Shown: positions 1,839 through 38,060 of the stretch, one piece after another
Position numbering within the stretch: the first letter of the stretch is position 1
How the letters are laid out: each line of letters begins with the position of its first letter
Source of the DNA: Clostridiales bacterium
GTDB taxonomy: Bacteria > Bacillota > Clostridia > Christensenellales > Aristaeellaceae
Length of the DNA stretch: 64,000 nt
Reading direction: 5' to 3'
Assembly (NCBI GenBank): GCA_015056055.1
Contig: SVHC01000010.1
Coordinates: forward strand, 4,385-68,384
Notes under the pieces: model-generated
Databases searched by the model: none
Told to the model about the DNA's origin: nothing
What the model saw: the letters and a program-made list of their open reading frames with translations, nothing else
Made by a program: the position numbers and the translations under genes

Positions 1839-2712
1839 ATCCACGATCCTCCATTTCCAGAATGAAGATCTCTTCCAGAGAGAGCGGCAGGAATTCCATA
1901 AAGAGCGGATTGAGCGAAGCGAGCTTCTGTTCCAGCTGTGCTTTATCGCCGCGCAGGGTGAGCATGCACAGCCTGCCCTGACGCTGCAGCCGCAGGGGAT
2001 GGAAGGGCGCAAAGGTGTCGTCGCTGACCTCCGCCTCCGGGATGAGCTGTACGCGATGCACATCGCCCAGCATGGAATCCAGATCGCCGGAGCATACCAG
2101 TCGGCCTTCATGCAGGAAACCCACGCTGTCGCAGATATCCTCCATTTCCTGCTGGTTATGACCGGCCAGAACCGTGATCAGTCCGCGGTCGATGGTTTCC
2201 TGACTGAGCACGCGCTTGAAGCTGTCGCGCATCACGGGATCGAGGCCGTCAAAGGTTTCGTCGCACAGAAGCACGCGGGGATTGAGCGAAAGCCCAAGGC
2301 AAATCTGCGCGCGCTTCTGCGTGCCCTTCGAAAAGCCGGTAATGCGCTCGTTCATCGGAAGCGTGAAGCGCAGGCAGAGATCGCGCAGCTTTGCTGCGTC
2401 AAAATATGGATAATAGGCCGCCTGCATGCGTCCCATCTCGGCGATGGTGGCATTGGGCAGGAAGGTGGGTTCATCGCTGAGATAGCAGATTTTCTGCTTC
2501 GCGTCCGGATTTTCAAATACAGGCGCATCGTCCAGCAATACGCTGCCCTGATCCGCGCGCAGAATGCCGCTCATCACGCGCAGCAGGGTGGATTTGCCCG
2601 CGCCGTTGGTGCCGAGCATGCCGAAAATATGGCCTTCCTCCAGCTTCAGGGAAAGATCGGCAAGAGCCTGCTTCTTTCCAAAATTCTTTTCAATCTGACT
2701 GACGGTTAACAT
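1825..2712 (-). CDS. ABC transporter ATP-binding protein
   Basis: Walker A GTNGAGKST, signature-like FSKGTQKR, Walker B LLCDETFDGLD. The ATG overlaps the stop of the upstream GntR gene (ATGTTAA). Confidence 0.9.
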   Translation of the reverse strand: MLTVSQIEKNFGKKQALADLSLKLEEGHIFGMLGTNGAGKSTLLRVMSGILRADQGSVLLDDAPVFENPDAKQKICYLSDEPTFLPNATIAEMGRMQAAYYPYFDAAKLRDLCLRFTLPMNERITGFSKGTQKRAQICLGLSLNPRVLLCDETFDGLDPVMRDSFKRVLSQETIDRGLITVLAGHNQQEMEDICDSVGFLHEGRLVCSGDLDSMLGDVHRVQLIPEAEVSDDTFAPFHPLRLQRQGRLCMLTLRGDKAQLEQKLASLNPLFMEFLPLSLEEIFILEMEDRGYAQH

Positions 2713-3083
2713 ACGTCTCCCTCCTCATAGGCTTGTTCAACGAGGCTGGCGACCGCTTCTTTGGACAGCCCCAGCTCGCGGCAGGCGCGGAGCGTTTCGA
2801 GCGTCTGTTTCAGCTGATCCGCGCGCTGCTTTTCCAGCATGCCCGCCAGATCTTCGCTCACAAAGCTGCCCCGGCCGGGCACGGACACGATCATCCCTTC
2901 ATCCTCCATACGGCGGTAGGCTTTCTGGATGGTGTTGGGGTTGATGCCGAGCTCCGTGGCCAGCTGCCGCACAGACGGCATGGCCTCGCCTGCCTTCACT
3001 ACGCCCAGAACCAGCTGTCTGCGCAGCTGCTCCACGAGCTGTTCATACAGAGGCTGCTTGCTCTTGGGGTTGACAAGGAACAT
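2706..3083 (-). CDS. GntR-family transcriptional regulator, YtrA-like short subfamily
   Basis: Winged-HTH stretch LPSVRQLATELGINPNTIQKAYRRMEDEGMIVSVPGRGSFV with only a short C-terminal helical tail. The track ORF (to 3302) is over-extended. AGGAGG at 3090-3097 fits ATG 3083 (MFLVNPK) or 3089 (MPMFLV). Confidence 0.85.
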   Translation of the reverse strand: MFLVNPKSKQPLYEQLVEQLRRQLVLGVVKAGEAMPSVRQLATELGINPNTIQKAYRRMEDEGMIVSVPGRGSFVSEDLAGMLEKQRADQLKQTLETLRACRELGLSKEAVASLVEQAYEEGDVC

Positions 3084-3105: not shown

Positions 3106-3132
3106 AACTGTACTAGTACGAGTAATACAGTT
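3106..3132. promoter_or_regulatory. candidate YtrA-type operator: perfect inverted repeat AACTGTA-N13-TACAGTT
   Basis: Arms at 3106-3112 and 3126-3132 with a 13-nt spacer. It sits between the -10 box and the RBS of the GntR-ABC operon. Confidence 0.55.
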
Positions 3133-3135
3133 GTG

Positions 3136-3164
3136 ATTATATACAGGCGAAAAGCATTTGTCAA
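3136..3164 (-). promoter_or_regulatory. sigma-A type promoter of the GntR-ABC-permease operon
   Basis: Minus strand reads TTGACA (3164-3159), a 17-nt spacer, then TATAAT (3141-3136). Confidence 0.7.
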
Positions 3165-3460: not shown

Positions 3461-4918
3461 TTATTCCGCATAATACTGCGCTTGGAGACCGTACAGTTCT
3501 GCATACTGCGCATGTTGAGCCATTAACGTATCATGGGAGCCGTATTCAGCCAAGCATCCCTGATGCAATACGGCGATCTGGTCACAGAATCTGCACGCCG
3601 ACAATCTGTGAGAAATATAGATTGCCGTCTTGCTGCCGATAAGAGCATCAAAGCTTCGATACAATTCATATTCTGCTCGCGGATCCATAGCTGCCGTAGG
3701 TTCGTCCAAGATGATTATTGGAGCCTGTTTACACAGTGCACGTGCGAGCGCAATCTTCTGCGCCTCACCGCCAGAGGGCTCAAAGCCATGTTCCTCAAAC
3801 CTTCGTCCAACAATGGAATCTATCCCATGGGGTAAGGCTGCGGCTTTTGAGTCCAAGCCTACCTGTTCGATCATTCTAGCGAGTTTTTCATTATCCATGC
3901 TTCTTCCAAGAAGAATATTTTCACGGATCGAACAGTCAAACAGCTGAAAATCCTGAAAAACAGTAGAGAATTGTGCAAGGTACTGATCGTAGTCATATTC
4001 CTGAATATCAATGCCGTCCATCAGAATGGTGCCCTCGGTGGGAACATAGAGACGGCACAGCAATTTGATCAGCGTTGATTTGCCAGACCCATTCTCACCA
4101 ACCAGAGCCAAACGCTGGCCGGGTTCGATCATCAAATCGATATGTCGAAGCGCCCAGTTTTCAGCGCCCGGATAGCAAAAGCCGACATTACGGAATTCGA
4201 TACGGTGTTCCTTGTGTAAATTCAGCGATAGCTTCCCAGTACGAAGCAGTTGGGGAATGTGCAGGTATTCATTCAAATGTGCGTAATAGAAGTCATACGC
4301 TCGTATTTCAGTCAGCCGATCCATTAGGCTGCGCATAGCCGCTGAGAAGGAAGTTACGGCACTGATGCACATTGTAAAAGAACCGATGCTCAAACTGCCG
4401 GAAATCACTTTGAGAATCAGCACGCCATAGCATACACTTTGCTGGAGAAAAGTAAGCCCTGCACGTTTGATTCCTGAAGCAATATAGCAGTTGTTTTGTC
4501 GTCTGATGCTGTCGTTGGCTTTGGCAGCCACCTGTTTTTCACGTTCAAGCAGCCATGATACCATTCCATTTATGCGGATTTCTTTGCCATATTGTGCCTG
4601 TTCAAATAATTCTGCATAGTATACCCAGCGGCGACTGTTCTGAACAACCTCCATGGACAGCGACATGGATTTTTTCATCGCTTTACTTTCTATCAGAGAA
4701 GCAACAATTGCCAGACTGGCAAAAAGGAGAATAAACCCCAATTCCATGGTGCTGAGAATAGCAAGCAGCCCGACGATGGCAATCGCCTGTCCGAGAATGT
4801 TGGCGCCGCAATCCAGCAGATTTCCTACACCTCTTTCTACACCAACTACACACTTCCTACACCTTTTTTCTCCCTGGAACAGAAACCAAATTCGCACAGC
4901 TGGCTTTTCTTCTTCCAT
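3461..4918 (-). pseudogene. 5'-truncated ABC exporter (fused TMD-NBD type); first ~90-100 aa (TM1-2) missing
   Basis: C-terminal NBD is intact: Walker A GENGSGKST at about aa 275-282, signature PSGGEAQK, Walker B IIILDEPTAAMD. Full-length exporters of this type usually carry Walker A near aa 370. The first ~30 aa of the ORF (MEEEKPAVRIWFLFQGEKRCRKCVVGVERGVG) are translated from the CTACACC repeat block rather than from a TM helix. The region is visibly AT-richer than its neighbours. Confidence 0.65.
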
Positions 4919-5141
4919 TGATGTAGTTTTCAGGTGTAGTTGGTGTAGTTTCGGGTGTAGGTTTGGTGTAGGTACTTAATGGCGAAAACCCTTACAGGAC
5001 AGGCGTTTTCAGCGTTTGGTGTAGTTTGTGTAGGTTTTTATATTTCTGAGGGAAAAATGAAAAATACAGAAATACAGTATGCAGAAAAAGGTAAAATACA
5101 TAAATCATATTGGAGTTGAAATAACCTACACAAACTACACC
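4825..5141. repeat. array of at least 12 GGTGTAG / CTACACC heptamers in three orientation blocks, including a perfect 19-bp inverted repeat
   Basis: CTACAC(C/A) at 4825, 4837, 4846 and 4857. (G)GTGTAG at 4921, 4933, 4942, 4954, 4965, 5018 and 5027. Two CTACAC units lie within 5123-5141. GGTGTAGTTTGTGTAGGTT (5018-5036) is the exact reverse complement of 5123-5141, with an 86-bp AT-rich spacer. Confidence 0.8.
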
Positions 5142-5782
5142 TGCTGCATTTTCACTGCATAAATACTGTGCATACAACGCATTTCTATGTGTTTGCTGAA
5201 ATACGCAGGATAAATATAAAACCGTCTTTCTGTGCCGTAAAGTGCCCGCCGCAAAATATGCTTTCACTCTACCCCAAATTCTTGCCGGGATTCTGAAACA
5301 GCTCGCCACGCTTTCAAATATAGAACGGCTGCCTATTTCTCATCCACGTTATAGCTTCACCGCGCCGGTGTTCTTATATGGTCGATCTGTAATACTTCGA
5401 AAAGCCTTTTCTCCGATGTGGCCAAATGGCCACATCGGGAGGCCATATTATTTTCATGTGGTAATGGCAGTCTCCAAAATATATTTGTAGAAAGGAAATT
5501 ACTCACCAGAAACAAAATGAGTTTTCATTAGGCTTCGGGCTGAACCACACTTCTTCCAGAATTCTGGTAGAAGGTAAATATAGCATGCGGTTATTTGGAG
5601 TGAGTGAGGAATATAACTCTCAGTTTCTTATCAGCATTATATCATGAAAACATGGAATCCGAAAGAGTTGAATACTTCGGACGTTTCTTTTAACCCGTGA
5701 CGTTTTCTTTAAATCGTCCAAAGTCGGGCGCATTTTTGCTTATTTAGCTTCGAAATATCATAAAAAGTTCCCCAGAACAAAA

Positions 5783-5819
5783 GAAAAAAGGCTGGACAGG
5801 GACAATCCCCATCCAGCCA
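5783..5819 (-). terminator. rho-independent terminator (second one downstream of tRNA-Trp 1)
   Basis: Minus strand reads GGCTGGATGGGGATTGTCCCTGTCCAGCC followed by TTTTTTCTTTTG. Confidence 0.6.
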
Positions 5820-5908
5820 AATGACGCCGCATATCCGATTTCTTGCGTCCAACAGGGTGATTTTGTCGCTATAGCCCTATATTTTGACGCTTTATCAGTC
5901 TATAAGTG

Positions 5909-5950
5909 CAAAAATAATCACCCATGCTTTGTATCAAAACATGAGTGATT
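5909..5950 (-). terminator. rho-independent terminator of tRNA-Trp 1
   Basis: Minus strand reads AATCACTCATG-loop-CATGGGTGATT followed by ATTTTTG, starting 4 nt after the tRNA CCA end. Confidence 0.65.
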
Positions 5951-5953
5951 AGG

Positions 5954-6027
5954 TGGCAGGGGCAGAAGGACTCGAACCCTCAACAAAGGTTTTGGAGACC
6001 CACGTGTTACCATTACACCATGCCCCT
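5954..6027 (-). tRNA. trnW: tRNA-Trp (anticodon CCA), CCA end encoded
   Basis: Minus strand reads AGGGGCATGGTGTAATGGTAACACGTGGGTCTCCAAAACCTTTGTTGAGGGTTCGAGTCCTTCTGCCCCTGCCA. It folds with a 7-bp acceptor AGGGGCA/TGCCCCT, D stem GTGT/ACAC, anticodon loop CU-CCA-AA, and T arm GAGGG-TTCGAGT-CCTTC. Confidence 0.9.
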
Positions 6028-6048
6028 ATGTTCTTGCGAACAATTGGC

Positions 6049-6077
6049 ATTATAACTGAAAGTGAAGTGAATGTCAA
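6049..6077 (-). promoter_or_regulatory. sigma-A promoter of tRNA-Trp 1
   Basis: Minus strand reads TTGACA (6077-6072), a 17-nt spacer, then TATAAT (6054-6049). The -10 box ends 22 nt before the mature 5' end. Confidence 0.75.
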
Positions 6078-6137
6078 TACTTTTGTGAAAGAAATTTTTA
6101 GGAATACATAGTTTTTTGTGTGCAACGCAATTTGCTG

Positions 6138-6175
6138 TATAAAAGCACCATCCGGGAATAATTCCGGGATGGTGC
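6138..6175 (-). terminator. rho-independent terminator downstream of the small ORF 6287..6490
   Basis: GCACCATCCGGGAAT / ATTCCGGGATGGTGC hairpin at 6145-6175 with one central mismatch, followed on the minus strand by TTTTATA. Confidence 0.55.
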
Positions 6176-6286
6176 GAAACTCAATTGGTTATACTGCTGA
6201 ATTTGTTCAAATCAAACGAGCAACACAGTCATACATCAAGAGTGGAGAAGGAGAGATGCAGATAATGTGATCGTTTTATGGATGAT

Positions 6287-6490
6287 TTAGTGTACGCCTG
6301 TGCCGCTTCCGTCAAACAGCTGCCTGCAGGAATTGTAGAACTTTGAAGCTCCCTGAAAGCCAAGGGTGGAGCGTTCTCTTTTTTGCTTTGCGTTGCGCTC
6401 TCTTACGATTTCGGGATTTTCTACAGGCTTTTTCTTGCGAAGTGAATTCCACTTCTGCGCAATGAAATGAAGGAAATTTGTGTTTTTCAT
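6287..6490 (-). CDS. small basic hypothetical protein (67 aa)
   Basis: MKNTNFLHFIAQKWNSLRKKKPVENPEIVRERNAKQKRERS... GAGGAG RBS 8 nt upstream of ATG 6490. A plausible promoter lies upstream and a terminator downstream. No recognisable domain. Confidence 0.35.
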   Translation of the reverse strand: MKNTNFLHFIAQKWNSLRKKKPVENPEIVRERNAKQKRERSTLGFQGASKFYNSCRQLFDGSGTGVH

Positions 6491-6618
6491 GACATTCACT
6501 CCTCTCTTTACACTAATATAGTACTATAAAACTAGGCGAAAAGTCAATTGACAGTATGAATAAAGTTAAGAAAAGAATTTTGGGAGCGTGCAACTGAGAA
6601 AGACGGAAGAAAAAGGTG

Positions 6619-6647
6619 TTGACATTCGCAAAAGAAAAGATTAAACT
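6619..6647 (+). promoter_or_regulatory. sigma-A type promoter of the phosphodiesterase-family gene
   Basis: TTGACA (6619-6624), a 17-nt spacer, then TAAACT (6642-6647). Confidence 0.55.
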
Positions 6648-6700
6648 TGCGGTATGGGTAAAGTTTGCATAGCACAGAAGTGCGATTTTATGGAGGAAAG

Positions 6701-7477
6701 ATGTGTATGTGTAAGGTTCAGCTTATACTGGTAGACGGAATGCGTCCCGATGCTTTGGCTGCCTGCAAAAATCCGTATGTGAATGAGTTACTGGAAAACA
6801 GCCTTTATACCCTGAAGGCGCAGACGGTTATGCCGTCTGTTACGCTGCCGTGCCATATGTCGCTGTTTCATTCGGTAGAGCCCGGTCGCCATGGTATTAC
6901 CACCAATACCTATATGCCGATGGCGCGTCCGGTCGATGGTATTTGCGAACGAGTCCGAAAAGGTGGAAAGAAACCCGGACTGTACTATAACTGGGAAGAG
7001 CTAAAGGATCTTGCTCGTCCGGACAGCCTTGCTAACTCCGTTTACTATTCCGGCCATTGCTACGGTTATGCAGCAGCCAATCCGTATGTTGCAAACGAAG
7101 CCATTCGCGCGATAAATGAACTTGGGCTGGATTTCACATTCACCTATTTTGGATGGAGCGATGAGGCGGGTCACAATTTCGGCTGGATGGGTGAGGAATA
7201 TCTGCATGCGGTTCACGAGTCCTGGAATTGCATTCGCAAAATGGTTGAGAGTGCACCGGAGGACTGCATCACCATTATCACTGCGGATCACGGCGGTCAT
7301 GACCGTGCACACGGCACGGATATGCCGGAGGATATGCTGATTCCTGTGATTTTGCACGGAAAGGGATTAAAGGGTGAACTGGAAGGCGATGTTTCTATCA
7401 TGGACATTGCTCCGACAATTGTGAAGCTTCTGGGCTGCGAATGCGCGCCCGAATGGGAAGGCAAAAGCCTGCTGTAA
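6701..7477 (+). CDS. alkaline-phosphatase superfamily protein (type I phosphodiesterase / nucleotide pyrophosphatase-like)
   Basis: LILVDGMRPDAL, MPSVTLPCHMSLFHSVEPGRHGI and ITADHGGHD metal-ligand motifs. GGAGGA RBS before ATG 6701; the track start 6665 is a TTG extension. Confidence 0.7.
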   Translation: MCMCKVQLILVDGMRPDALAACKNPYVNELLENSLYTLKAQTVMPSVTLPCHMSLFHSVEPGRHGITTNTYMPMARPVDGICERVRKGGKKPGLYYNWEELKDLARPDSLANSVYYSGHCYGYAAANPYVANEAIRAINELGLDFTFTYFGWSDEAGHNFGWMGEEYLHAVHESWNCIRKMVESAPEDCITIITADHGGHDRAHGTDMPEDMLIPVILHGKGLKGELEGDVSIMDIAPTIVKLLGCECAPEWEGKSLL

Positions 7478-37986: not shown

Positions 37987-38060
37987 TGGCAGGGGCAGTA
38001 AGACTCGAACTCACAACAAAGGTTTTGGAGACCCACGTGTTACCATTACACCATGCCCCT
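37987..38060 (-). tRNA. trnW: tRNA-Trp (anticodon CCA), second copy
   Basis: Identical to copy 1 through position 47. The T arm differs by compensated changes (GTGAG-TTCGAGT-CTTAC versus GAGGG-TTCGAGT-CCTTC). Acceptor and CCA end are identical. Confidence 0.9.

Follow-up and report, generated by a model that had tools for sequence, protein, structure and literature searches.

A GTGTAG repeat array at the break point of a truncated ABC exporter gene is probably the orphan replication origin of a lost phage-satellite-like island

The window analysed here, a 64,000-nucleotide stretch of contig SVHC01000010.1 from a Clostridiales bacterium of the family Aristaeellaceae (assembly GCA_015056055.1), contains a dense array of the hexamer GTGTAG directly next to a 5′-truncated gene for an ATP-binding cassette (ABC) exporter. 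Sequence comparison and analogy to known systems indicate that this array is probably a replication origin of the type used by the Rep proteins of Staphylococcus aureus pathogenicity islands (SaPIs) and phage-inducible chromosomal islands (PICIs), which stayed behind as a deletion scar when a phage-satellite-like island was lost. Since the initiator gene is gone, the putative origin is referred to as an orphan.

Within positions 4825–5140 the array comprises 12 exact copies of GTGTAG or its complement CTACAC, which together with an ATGTAG variant at 4921 add up to 13 repeats. Nine copies extend to the full heptamer GGTGTAG. The original prediction, a note made from the sequence of the window, had counted at least 12 copies of the heptamer, which holds for the hexamer but slightly overstates the number of exact heptamers. 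The repeats are spaced by 9–13 bp, with four pairs of the form GTGTAGnnnGTGTAG displaying a 9-bp period, and are grouped into four blocks. Block A (4825–4862, minus strand) consists of four CTACAC copies (minus-strand GTGTAG) at 4825, 4837, 4846, and 4857, and block B (4921–4971, plus strand) of the ATGTAG variant followed by GTGTAG at 4934, 4943, 4955, and 4966, including one 9-bp-phased pair. Pair C (GTGTAGtttGTGTAG; 5019–5033, plus strand, GTGTAG at 5019 and 5028) and pair D (CTACACaaaCTACAC; 5126–5140, minus strand, CTACAC at 5126 and 5135) form the left and the right flank of an AT-rich centre (5034–5125), which is 92 bp long, has a G+C content of 25%, and by analogy represents the predicted DNA-unwinding region. 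The two pairs give rise to an exact 19-bp inverted repeat, GGTGTAGTTTGTGTAGGTT (5018–5036) and AACCTACACAAACTACACC (5123–5141), with 86 bp between the arms, just as had been described in the original prediction. In origins of the proposed type, 6–12 or more short iterons (5–8 bp) are expected, at least two of them on either side of an AT-rich centre of about 80–100 bp and in opposed orientation. The 13 repeats of the window and the arrangement of pairs C and D agree with this layout.

The heptamer GGTGTAG occurs 18 times in the window versus 2.95 times expected, a count that was reached in none of 100 shuffles. Moreover, runs of at least three copies are restricted to the array locus in the 2.83-Mb assembly of 80 contigs. 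Due to the excess over the shuffled sequences and the presence of a sole cluster in the assembly, the array is not a product of chance. Uniqueness of the cluster likewise dispels the concern, raised at the outset, that the motif might be a common dispersed repeat.

The array marks the point at which the exporter gene was cut, and this earlier claim proved correct to the base. The listed open reading frame (ORF) of the exporter (3461–4918, minus strand) reaches its ATG at 4918 only because it continues across the array, and the alignment with relatives from the same order, which are about 600 aa long, starts only at ORF residue ~40. The truncated gene itself (3461–4821, minus strand, Pfam ABC_tran) corresponds to codons ~135–587 of the intact 587-aa orthologue, P0001 of an Aristaeellaceae metagenome-assembled genome (MAG), which is the closest exporter in a large protein collection and shares 83% amino acid identity. 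At the DNA level, the closest intact exporter gene is 86% identical, with window 4821→3459 corresponding to positions 3838→5200 of locus L170. Exporter homology ends at 4821, 3 bp ahead of the first repeat, and 134 codons are missing. Searches of the assembly for this 5′ part, using distant homologues as well as the 83%-identical orthologue as queries, did not recover it. Orthologous exporters do not contain the array, so that the repeats cannot be taken for ordinary coding sequence of an intact exporter, as the original prediction had considered.

The joint was defined by a three-way comparison between the window, the intact exporter of L170, and a related island copy from a human-gut metagenome (L259). 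In the exporter the sequence reads ...CAGCAG-AT-AGCC, in the island ...ACATC-AT-TTCCTACACC, and in the window ...CAGCAG-AT-TTCCTACACC, which places the joint at 4820–4821 on a 2-bp microhomology, AT, common to exporter and island. Beyond the joint, L259 contains one further iteron-like CTACAT. Therefore, the left boundary of the island sequence in the window is a deletion endpoint just inside the island and not its natural end.

With respect to the exporter, the surroundings of the intact gene differ from those in the window. In the Aristaeellaceae MAG, a gene for a 285-aa tyrosine recombinase (L170 2193–3050) and several small ORFs are located directly upstream of the exporter, and the downstream neighbours of the exporter are not the same in L170 and the window. 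On these grounds the exporter gene may itself be situated on a mobile segment.

The L259 contig (human gut, 3.7 kb) matches the window with 90% identity over 4820–5183, 85% over 5308–5409, and 97% over 5549–5578. Longer contigs of the same island (L306–L310, L312, and L314) were reached through a 62-aa gene of L259. The island has a size of at least 20 kb, and the origin-bearing copy represents its terminal ~570–760 bp. In every copy seen, the array lies within about 250–570 bp of the island end, and the 21 kb of L314 contain one single GTGTAG cluster, the array being present at one island end only. Starting from a host esterase gene, the order is GTGTAG array, a dozen small genes, one of them amidoligase-like, an HTH_17 protein, a 420-aa ParB-like protein, a 768-aa primase-helicase, capsid genes, DarT and Macro, and finally two large serine recombinases. 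DarT and Macro (L314 16056–17938), flanked by the capsid genes on one side and the serine recombinases on the other, constitute a DarTG-like cargo pair.

The 768-aa protein of the island (L314 11374–13680) contains NrS1-pol-HBD, D5_N, and DUF5906 domains and matches PriRep5 of SaPI5 (PDB 7OLA, E 4.7e-29) over the primase, the helicase, and part of the C-terminal domain. It is 52% identical, over the full length, to the helicase of a Lachnospiraceae locus (L233), where a GTGTAG origin starts 82 bp past the stop codon of the helicase gene, with a capsid gene coming next. A cognate helicase of superfamily 3 (SF3) or MCM type encoded in the same element is thus found for the parent island only, where the C-terminal winged helix is assigned by analogy. 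Comparison between the window and L259 revealed differences at 1 of 78 hexamer sites and at 34 of 279 sites in the rest of the array (Fisher p = 0.0013), which suggests that the iteron hexamers are under constraint. Block B is 100% conserved in L259, and block A is retained with the exception of its third repeat.

The island piece left in the window extends from 4822 to about 5580 and amounts to ~760 bp. To the right of the iterons lies a non-coding island tail (5141–5580), which is homologous to L259 and L314 at 5308–5409 and 5549–5578 and no further. A near-palindrome, CTTCTTCCAGAATTCTGGTAGAAG, is located at 5549–5572, close to the island end. The right boundary at ~5580, just past CTTCTTCCAGAATTCTGGTAGAAG, is common to the metagenome copies and is the end of the island. 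Two stretches, at about 5184–5307 and about 5415–5463, are specific to the window in comparison with L259. A perfect 26-bp palindrome, CCGATGTGGCCAAATGGCCACATCGG, at ~5414–5439 falls in a ~49-bp stretch without counterpart in the gut-metagenome island copies and is unique in the assembly.

In order to identify the same architecture elsewhere, a search pattern consisting of two phased GTGTAG, a spacer of 55–95 nt, and two phased CTACAC (GTGTAGnnnGTGTAG-N55-95-CTACACnnnCTACAC; 24 specified bases) was used. It was found at 162 viral, genomic, and metagenomic loci, with 32 IMG/VR viral contigs of widely varying G+C content, 65 loci in species-representative genomes and, as the variant GTGTAGTTN, 65 metagenome contigs. 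The genomic loci belong to Actinomycetota, Alpha-, Beta-, and Gammaproteobacteria, Bacteroidota, several Clostridia, Chloroflexota, Patescibacteria, and one Woesearchaeota MAG. Two control patterns with shuffled hexamers did not yield any locus in the viral collection. A first scan of the viral contigs with a single-pair pattern gave a number of hits near chance, and the inverted double pattern alone is informative; the exact pattern of block B has no match in viral contigs. The three bases following GTGTAG vary between elements. At most related loci the spacer is AT-rich, and many of them contain extra repeat blocks in both orientations, like the window.

Two particular cases were encountered among these loci. 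In one phage group from IMG/VR (L144/L153, L141/L150, L145, L148, and L152), each contig carries 2–3 elements of the GTGTAGGGT type, in which a G+C-rich, palindromic spacer takes the place of the AT-rich one, its inner part occurring in both orientations among the copies. Multi-copy hits in Promicromonospora kroppenstedtii were considered as a miniature inverted-repeat transposable element and rejected, given two site types, long flanks that are also repeated, and a draft assembly with runs of N.

When all ORFs within 2.5 kb of the pattern elements were clustered, two families dominated, and at 100 of the 162 loci the element touches an SF3 primase-helicase gene. The first family (49 loci) consists of primase-helicases with Prim-Pol, PriCT_2, D5_N, DUF5906, and Pox_D5 domains. 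Of the 52 ORFs of this family, 40 terminate no more than 150 bp from the element, usually leaving a gap of 10–25 bp. The second family (51 loci) is formed by P-loop primase-helicases of ~430 aa. Here the array is located inside the coding sequence, 520–620 bp before the stop codon, and is translated as SVVSVV...TTQTTQ. In these proteins (metagenome loci L237–L300, for example L256 2124–4041) the translated array separates the ATPase from the C-terminal domain. Across the two families, the C-terminal domains align weakly with each other (hhalign probability 72%, E 3e-5). Distant relatives of the first family in phages have this layout, too, immediately behind the gene and built from different repeat words, namely GTTACCG in Listeria phage LP-P111, TGTTACT in Bacillus phage phi105, and GGTAGCAG in the human faecal phage contig MT838964. 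Among the options listed in the original prediction, that of iterons is therefore the one favoured: the anatomy is that of SaPI/PICI Rep origins, and the same architecture abuts or lies within primase-helicase genes.

By analogy to the Rep proteins of SaPIs, the winged-helix C-terminal domains of the hexameric SF3 primase-helicase, the PriRep5 homologue of the island, would bind the iterons on both sides of the centre. The bound helicase domains would distort and melt the AT-rich DNA, and the helicase would load itself onto the melted centre. The scar in the window would then result from a deletion by illegitimate recombination at the 2-bp microhomology, which took out the whole stretch between a point just inside the origin and exporter codon ~135. 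The last ~760 bp of the island would have stayed in place, with the origin essentially whole. Loss of the initiator gene would have turned it into an orphan, which is presumably silent as long as no element whose helicase reads GTGTAG enters the cell. No homologues of either helicase family, PriRep included, and no other parts of the island were found in the assembly.

Several points weigh against an orphan Rep origin. In the parent island the array lies at the island end, ~9 kb from the helicase gene instead of directly 3′ of it, and neither the window nor the assembly contains a rep gene that the array could immediately follow. The window copy and the metagenome copies occupy different chromosomal sites, the flanks of L259 and L314 differing from those of the window on both sides. 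Origin function of GTGTAG arrays is deduced from their layout, from the genes associated with them, and from homology to SaPI5 PriRep5, and about 60 of the 162 loci have no helicase within reach, many of these being short contigs. The conservation of the iterons may date from the time when both copies sat in active islands and is therefore uninformative on the orphan copy. Finally, the assembly is a draft of 80 contigs with an estimated completeness of 95%, so that the initiator might lie on an unassembled piece.

As to the present state of such orphans, a bold and unlikely reading is that GTGTAG pairs with a 9-bp period form an origin word common to bacterial phyla and recognized by a C-terminal domain that the two SF3 families share, and that orphan copies like the present one, with all iterons preserved despite the loss of the island, are still competent, either firing in place or acting as a sink for initiators. 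If they were, an incoming satellite or phage using the GTGTAG word could fire the orphan and over-replicate the adjacent chromosome. Alternatively, the orphan could titrate the initiator of the invader and thereby represent a natural chromosomal counterpart of 'Per', the origin-decoy type of phage resistance known from dairy bacteria.

The original prediction had also proposed multi-site ends of a transposase or recombinase, which would serve excision, integration, or transposition at the end of a mobile element. The position of the array, within about 250–570 bp of the island end in all copies seen, is compatible with this role. However, the recombinases of the parent island are large serine recombinases, which act on att sites of ~50 bp without arm-type sites, and the array is present at a single island end. 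Elsewhere it lies next to the stop codon (40 ORFs) or in the interior (51 loci) of primase-helicase genes, wherever the element may end. In addition, the window contains no transposase within 30 kb and neither a matching second end nor a terminal inverted repeat between 4822 and 5580; the earlier remark that the array has neither a recombinase nor a partition gene next to it was borne out for the window. Taken together, a role as recombinase or transposase binding sites is very improbable.

Equally slim are the prospects of a centromere-like partition site (parS/parC) recognized by the island-encoded ParB-like protein. Short repeats that follow the helical phase and are arranged in opposed blocks are a typical trait of parC/parS, and the parent island encodes its 420-aa ParB-like protein beside the helicase gene. 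Nevertheless, a phmmer search detected no relative of this protein at the other 162 GTGTAG loci, 100 of which have helicases, and a large AT-rich centre characterizes origins, not centromeres. The centromere-like site suggested at first is accordingly not supported.

Transcriptional control, be it by an island cassette with multiple operators or a late promoter, or by operators for the nearby YtrA-like GntR regulator, is hardly more credible. In phages a late promoter often follows the replication genes, GTGTA/TACAC resembles the YtrA half-site, and the GntR gene is located only 1.7 kb away. On the other hand, the GntR promoter has its own palindrome, ACTGTA-N13-TACAGT, and the array is foreign DNA that came with the island, bounded at 4821 and about 5580. 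The array loci span many phyla independently of a local GntR/ABC operon, although they were not scanned for GntR genes, and at 51 loci the array is placed inside the helicase coding sequence, which would be an odd site for a promoter. The operator function put forward in the original prediction thus finds no footing here.

The promoter of the GntR gene (2706–3083) at 3120–3150 (minus strand) consists of a consensus-like TTGACA-N17-TATAAT followed by ACTGTA-N13-TACAGT, and the latter is likely the autoregulatory operator of the YtrA-like GntR/ABC operon.

Least plausible of all is that the joint 4821/4822 is a metagenome-assembly artefact and exporter and array are no true neighbours: the genome is indeed a draft of 80 contigs, but an overlap of 2 bp is too short for an assembler to seed a join, and the array runs rightwards into genome-specific DNA and then into a tRNA trailer common to related genera.

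With the orphan origin retained as the preferred reading, the remaining DNA around it can be described briefly. The region 5140–5960 contains no pseudogene remnants; its ORFs are short stop-to-stop frames, two of which are without Pfam match. A tblastx comparison of the region with the array loci detected nothing outside the array, BLAST of window 4780–5950 against PLSDB plasmids and INPHARED phages gave no match, and none of 400 genomes of the order contains a copy of 4822–5580. In a DNA search of 40 relatives only the tRNA trailer was matched, and an Rfam scan of 4000–7000 returned the tRNA as the sole match. A neighbouring gene for a 625-aa protein has no homologue in the relatives, so that synteny could not be established through it. 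The next 30 kb of the window contain ordinary chromosomal genes.

Outside the island, a host trailer with two terminator-like hairpins detected in a terminator scan (5785–5953, minus strand) is situated directly 3′ of a host tRNA-Trp (CCA) gene (5954–6027, minus strand), which was identified by ARAGORN and Rfam. The trailer of ~165 nt starts with a hairpin of 16–17 bp and a U-run, followed after about 100 nt by the second terminator-like hairpin. It is conserved to 75–93% after tRNA-Trp, tRNA-Val, and tRNA-Glu genes of related genera, has no Rfam match, and shows compensatory changes at three positions of the first stem. A second tRNA-Trp (CCA) gene, about 95% identical to the first, is found on the same strand 32 kb away (37987–38060). 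The upstream promoter regions of the two genes are partly conserved and the downstream regions are unrelated; the genes are not att duplicates. An integrated element between them was considered and rejected, as each of the two genes is complete and has a promoter of its own, and ordinary chromosomal genes lie between them.

In this genome, the scar of a lost island would account both for an otherwise puzzling kilobase of non-coding DNA and for the broken exporter. Beyond this locus, one iteron word with fixed phasing appears to mark origins of the primase-helicase type in viruses as well as islands from many phyla, even where the origin is embedded in the helicase gene, and the phasing of GTGTAG may serve as a simple sequence signature to locate such origins and to pair them with their initiators. 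If origins can persist as orphans after the island has been lost, such arrays are at risk of being annotated as transposon ends or operators, and the question arises whether orphan origins interact with incoming elements.

SaPI/PICI Rep-origin modules are well described, and the array, read as an origin, is a further example of this known design. New are the GTGTAG word, which is widely spread in two helicase families, the island with its putative origin at the far end from the helicase gene, and the preservation of a whole, apparently orphaned origin at a deletion joint.

Comparison with other systems places the individual traits in context. In satellite phage P4, the C-terminal DNA-binding domain of the primase-helicase alpha reads short repeats in ori and crr. 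These repeats are octamers, and the sites can be kilobases away from the gene, with more than one per element. However, P4 needs two sites, whereas the parent island contains one array. Phage lambda harbours its ori inside the O gene. The loci of the second helicase family, which are relatives of the window array and not the window itself, resemble lambda in that the array lies inside the coding sequence of the presumed initiator, yet this initiator is an SF3-type ATPase and not an O-type protein.

The closest resemblance in origin anatomy is to SaPI5, whose PriRep5 and origin are represented by PDB entries 7OLA and 7OM0. SaPI origins comprise 6–12 penta- to heptamer iterons immediately downstream of rep, which the C-terminal domain of Rep reads through its winged helix (PMC9371898; bioRxiv 10.64898/2026.10.17.759575), and at least two iterons are found in opposed orientation on each side of an AT-rich centre (PMC9371898). 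In SaPI5 the centre measures about 102 bp, some iterons are inverted within a side, and the iteron TGCAACC followed by AA gives a 9-bp period (PMC9371898; bioRxiv 10.64898/2026.10.17.759575). The window array shares with SaPI5 the heptamer plus 2 nt with its 9-bp period, the opposed iteron sets around an AT-rich centre of ~100 bp, and the inversion of some iterons within a side. In contrast, the word is GGTGTAG in the window and TGCAACC in SaPI5, and the window origin is without initiator. The parent island differs further from SaPI5, where the origin is located directly 3′ of the helicase gene instead of about 9 kb away at the island end, and it has large serine recombinases for integration as well as DarT/Macro. 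More broadly, the parent island resembles SaPIbov1, SaPI1, and the PICIs in its gene layout, which combines recombinase, regulators, primase-helicase, origin, and capsid or packaging genes, and in the anatomy of its origin. Two clostridial loci (L233 and L192) display the order int, helicase, GTGTAG origin, and then capsid or terS. Distinct from the SaPIs and PICIs, the host in the present case belongs to a gut Clostridia lineage.

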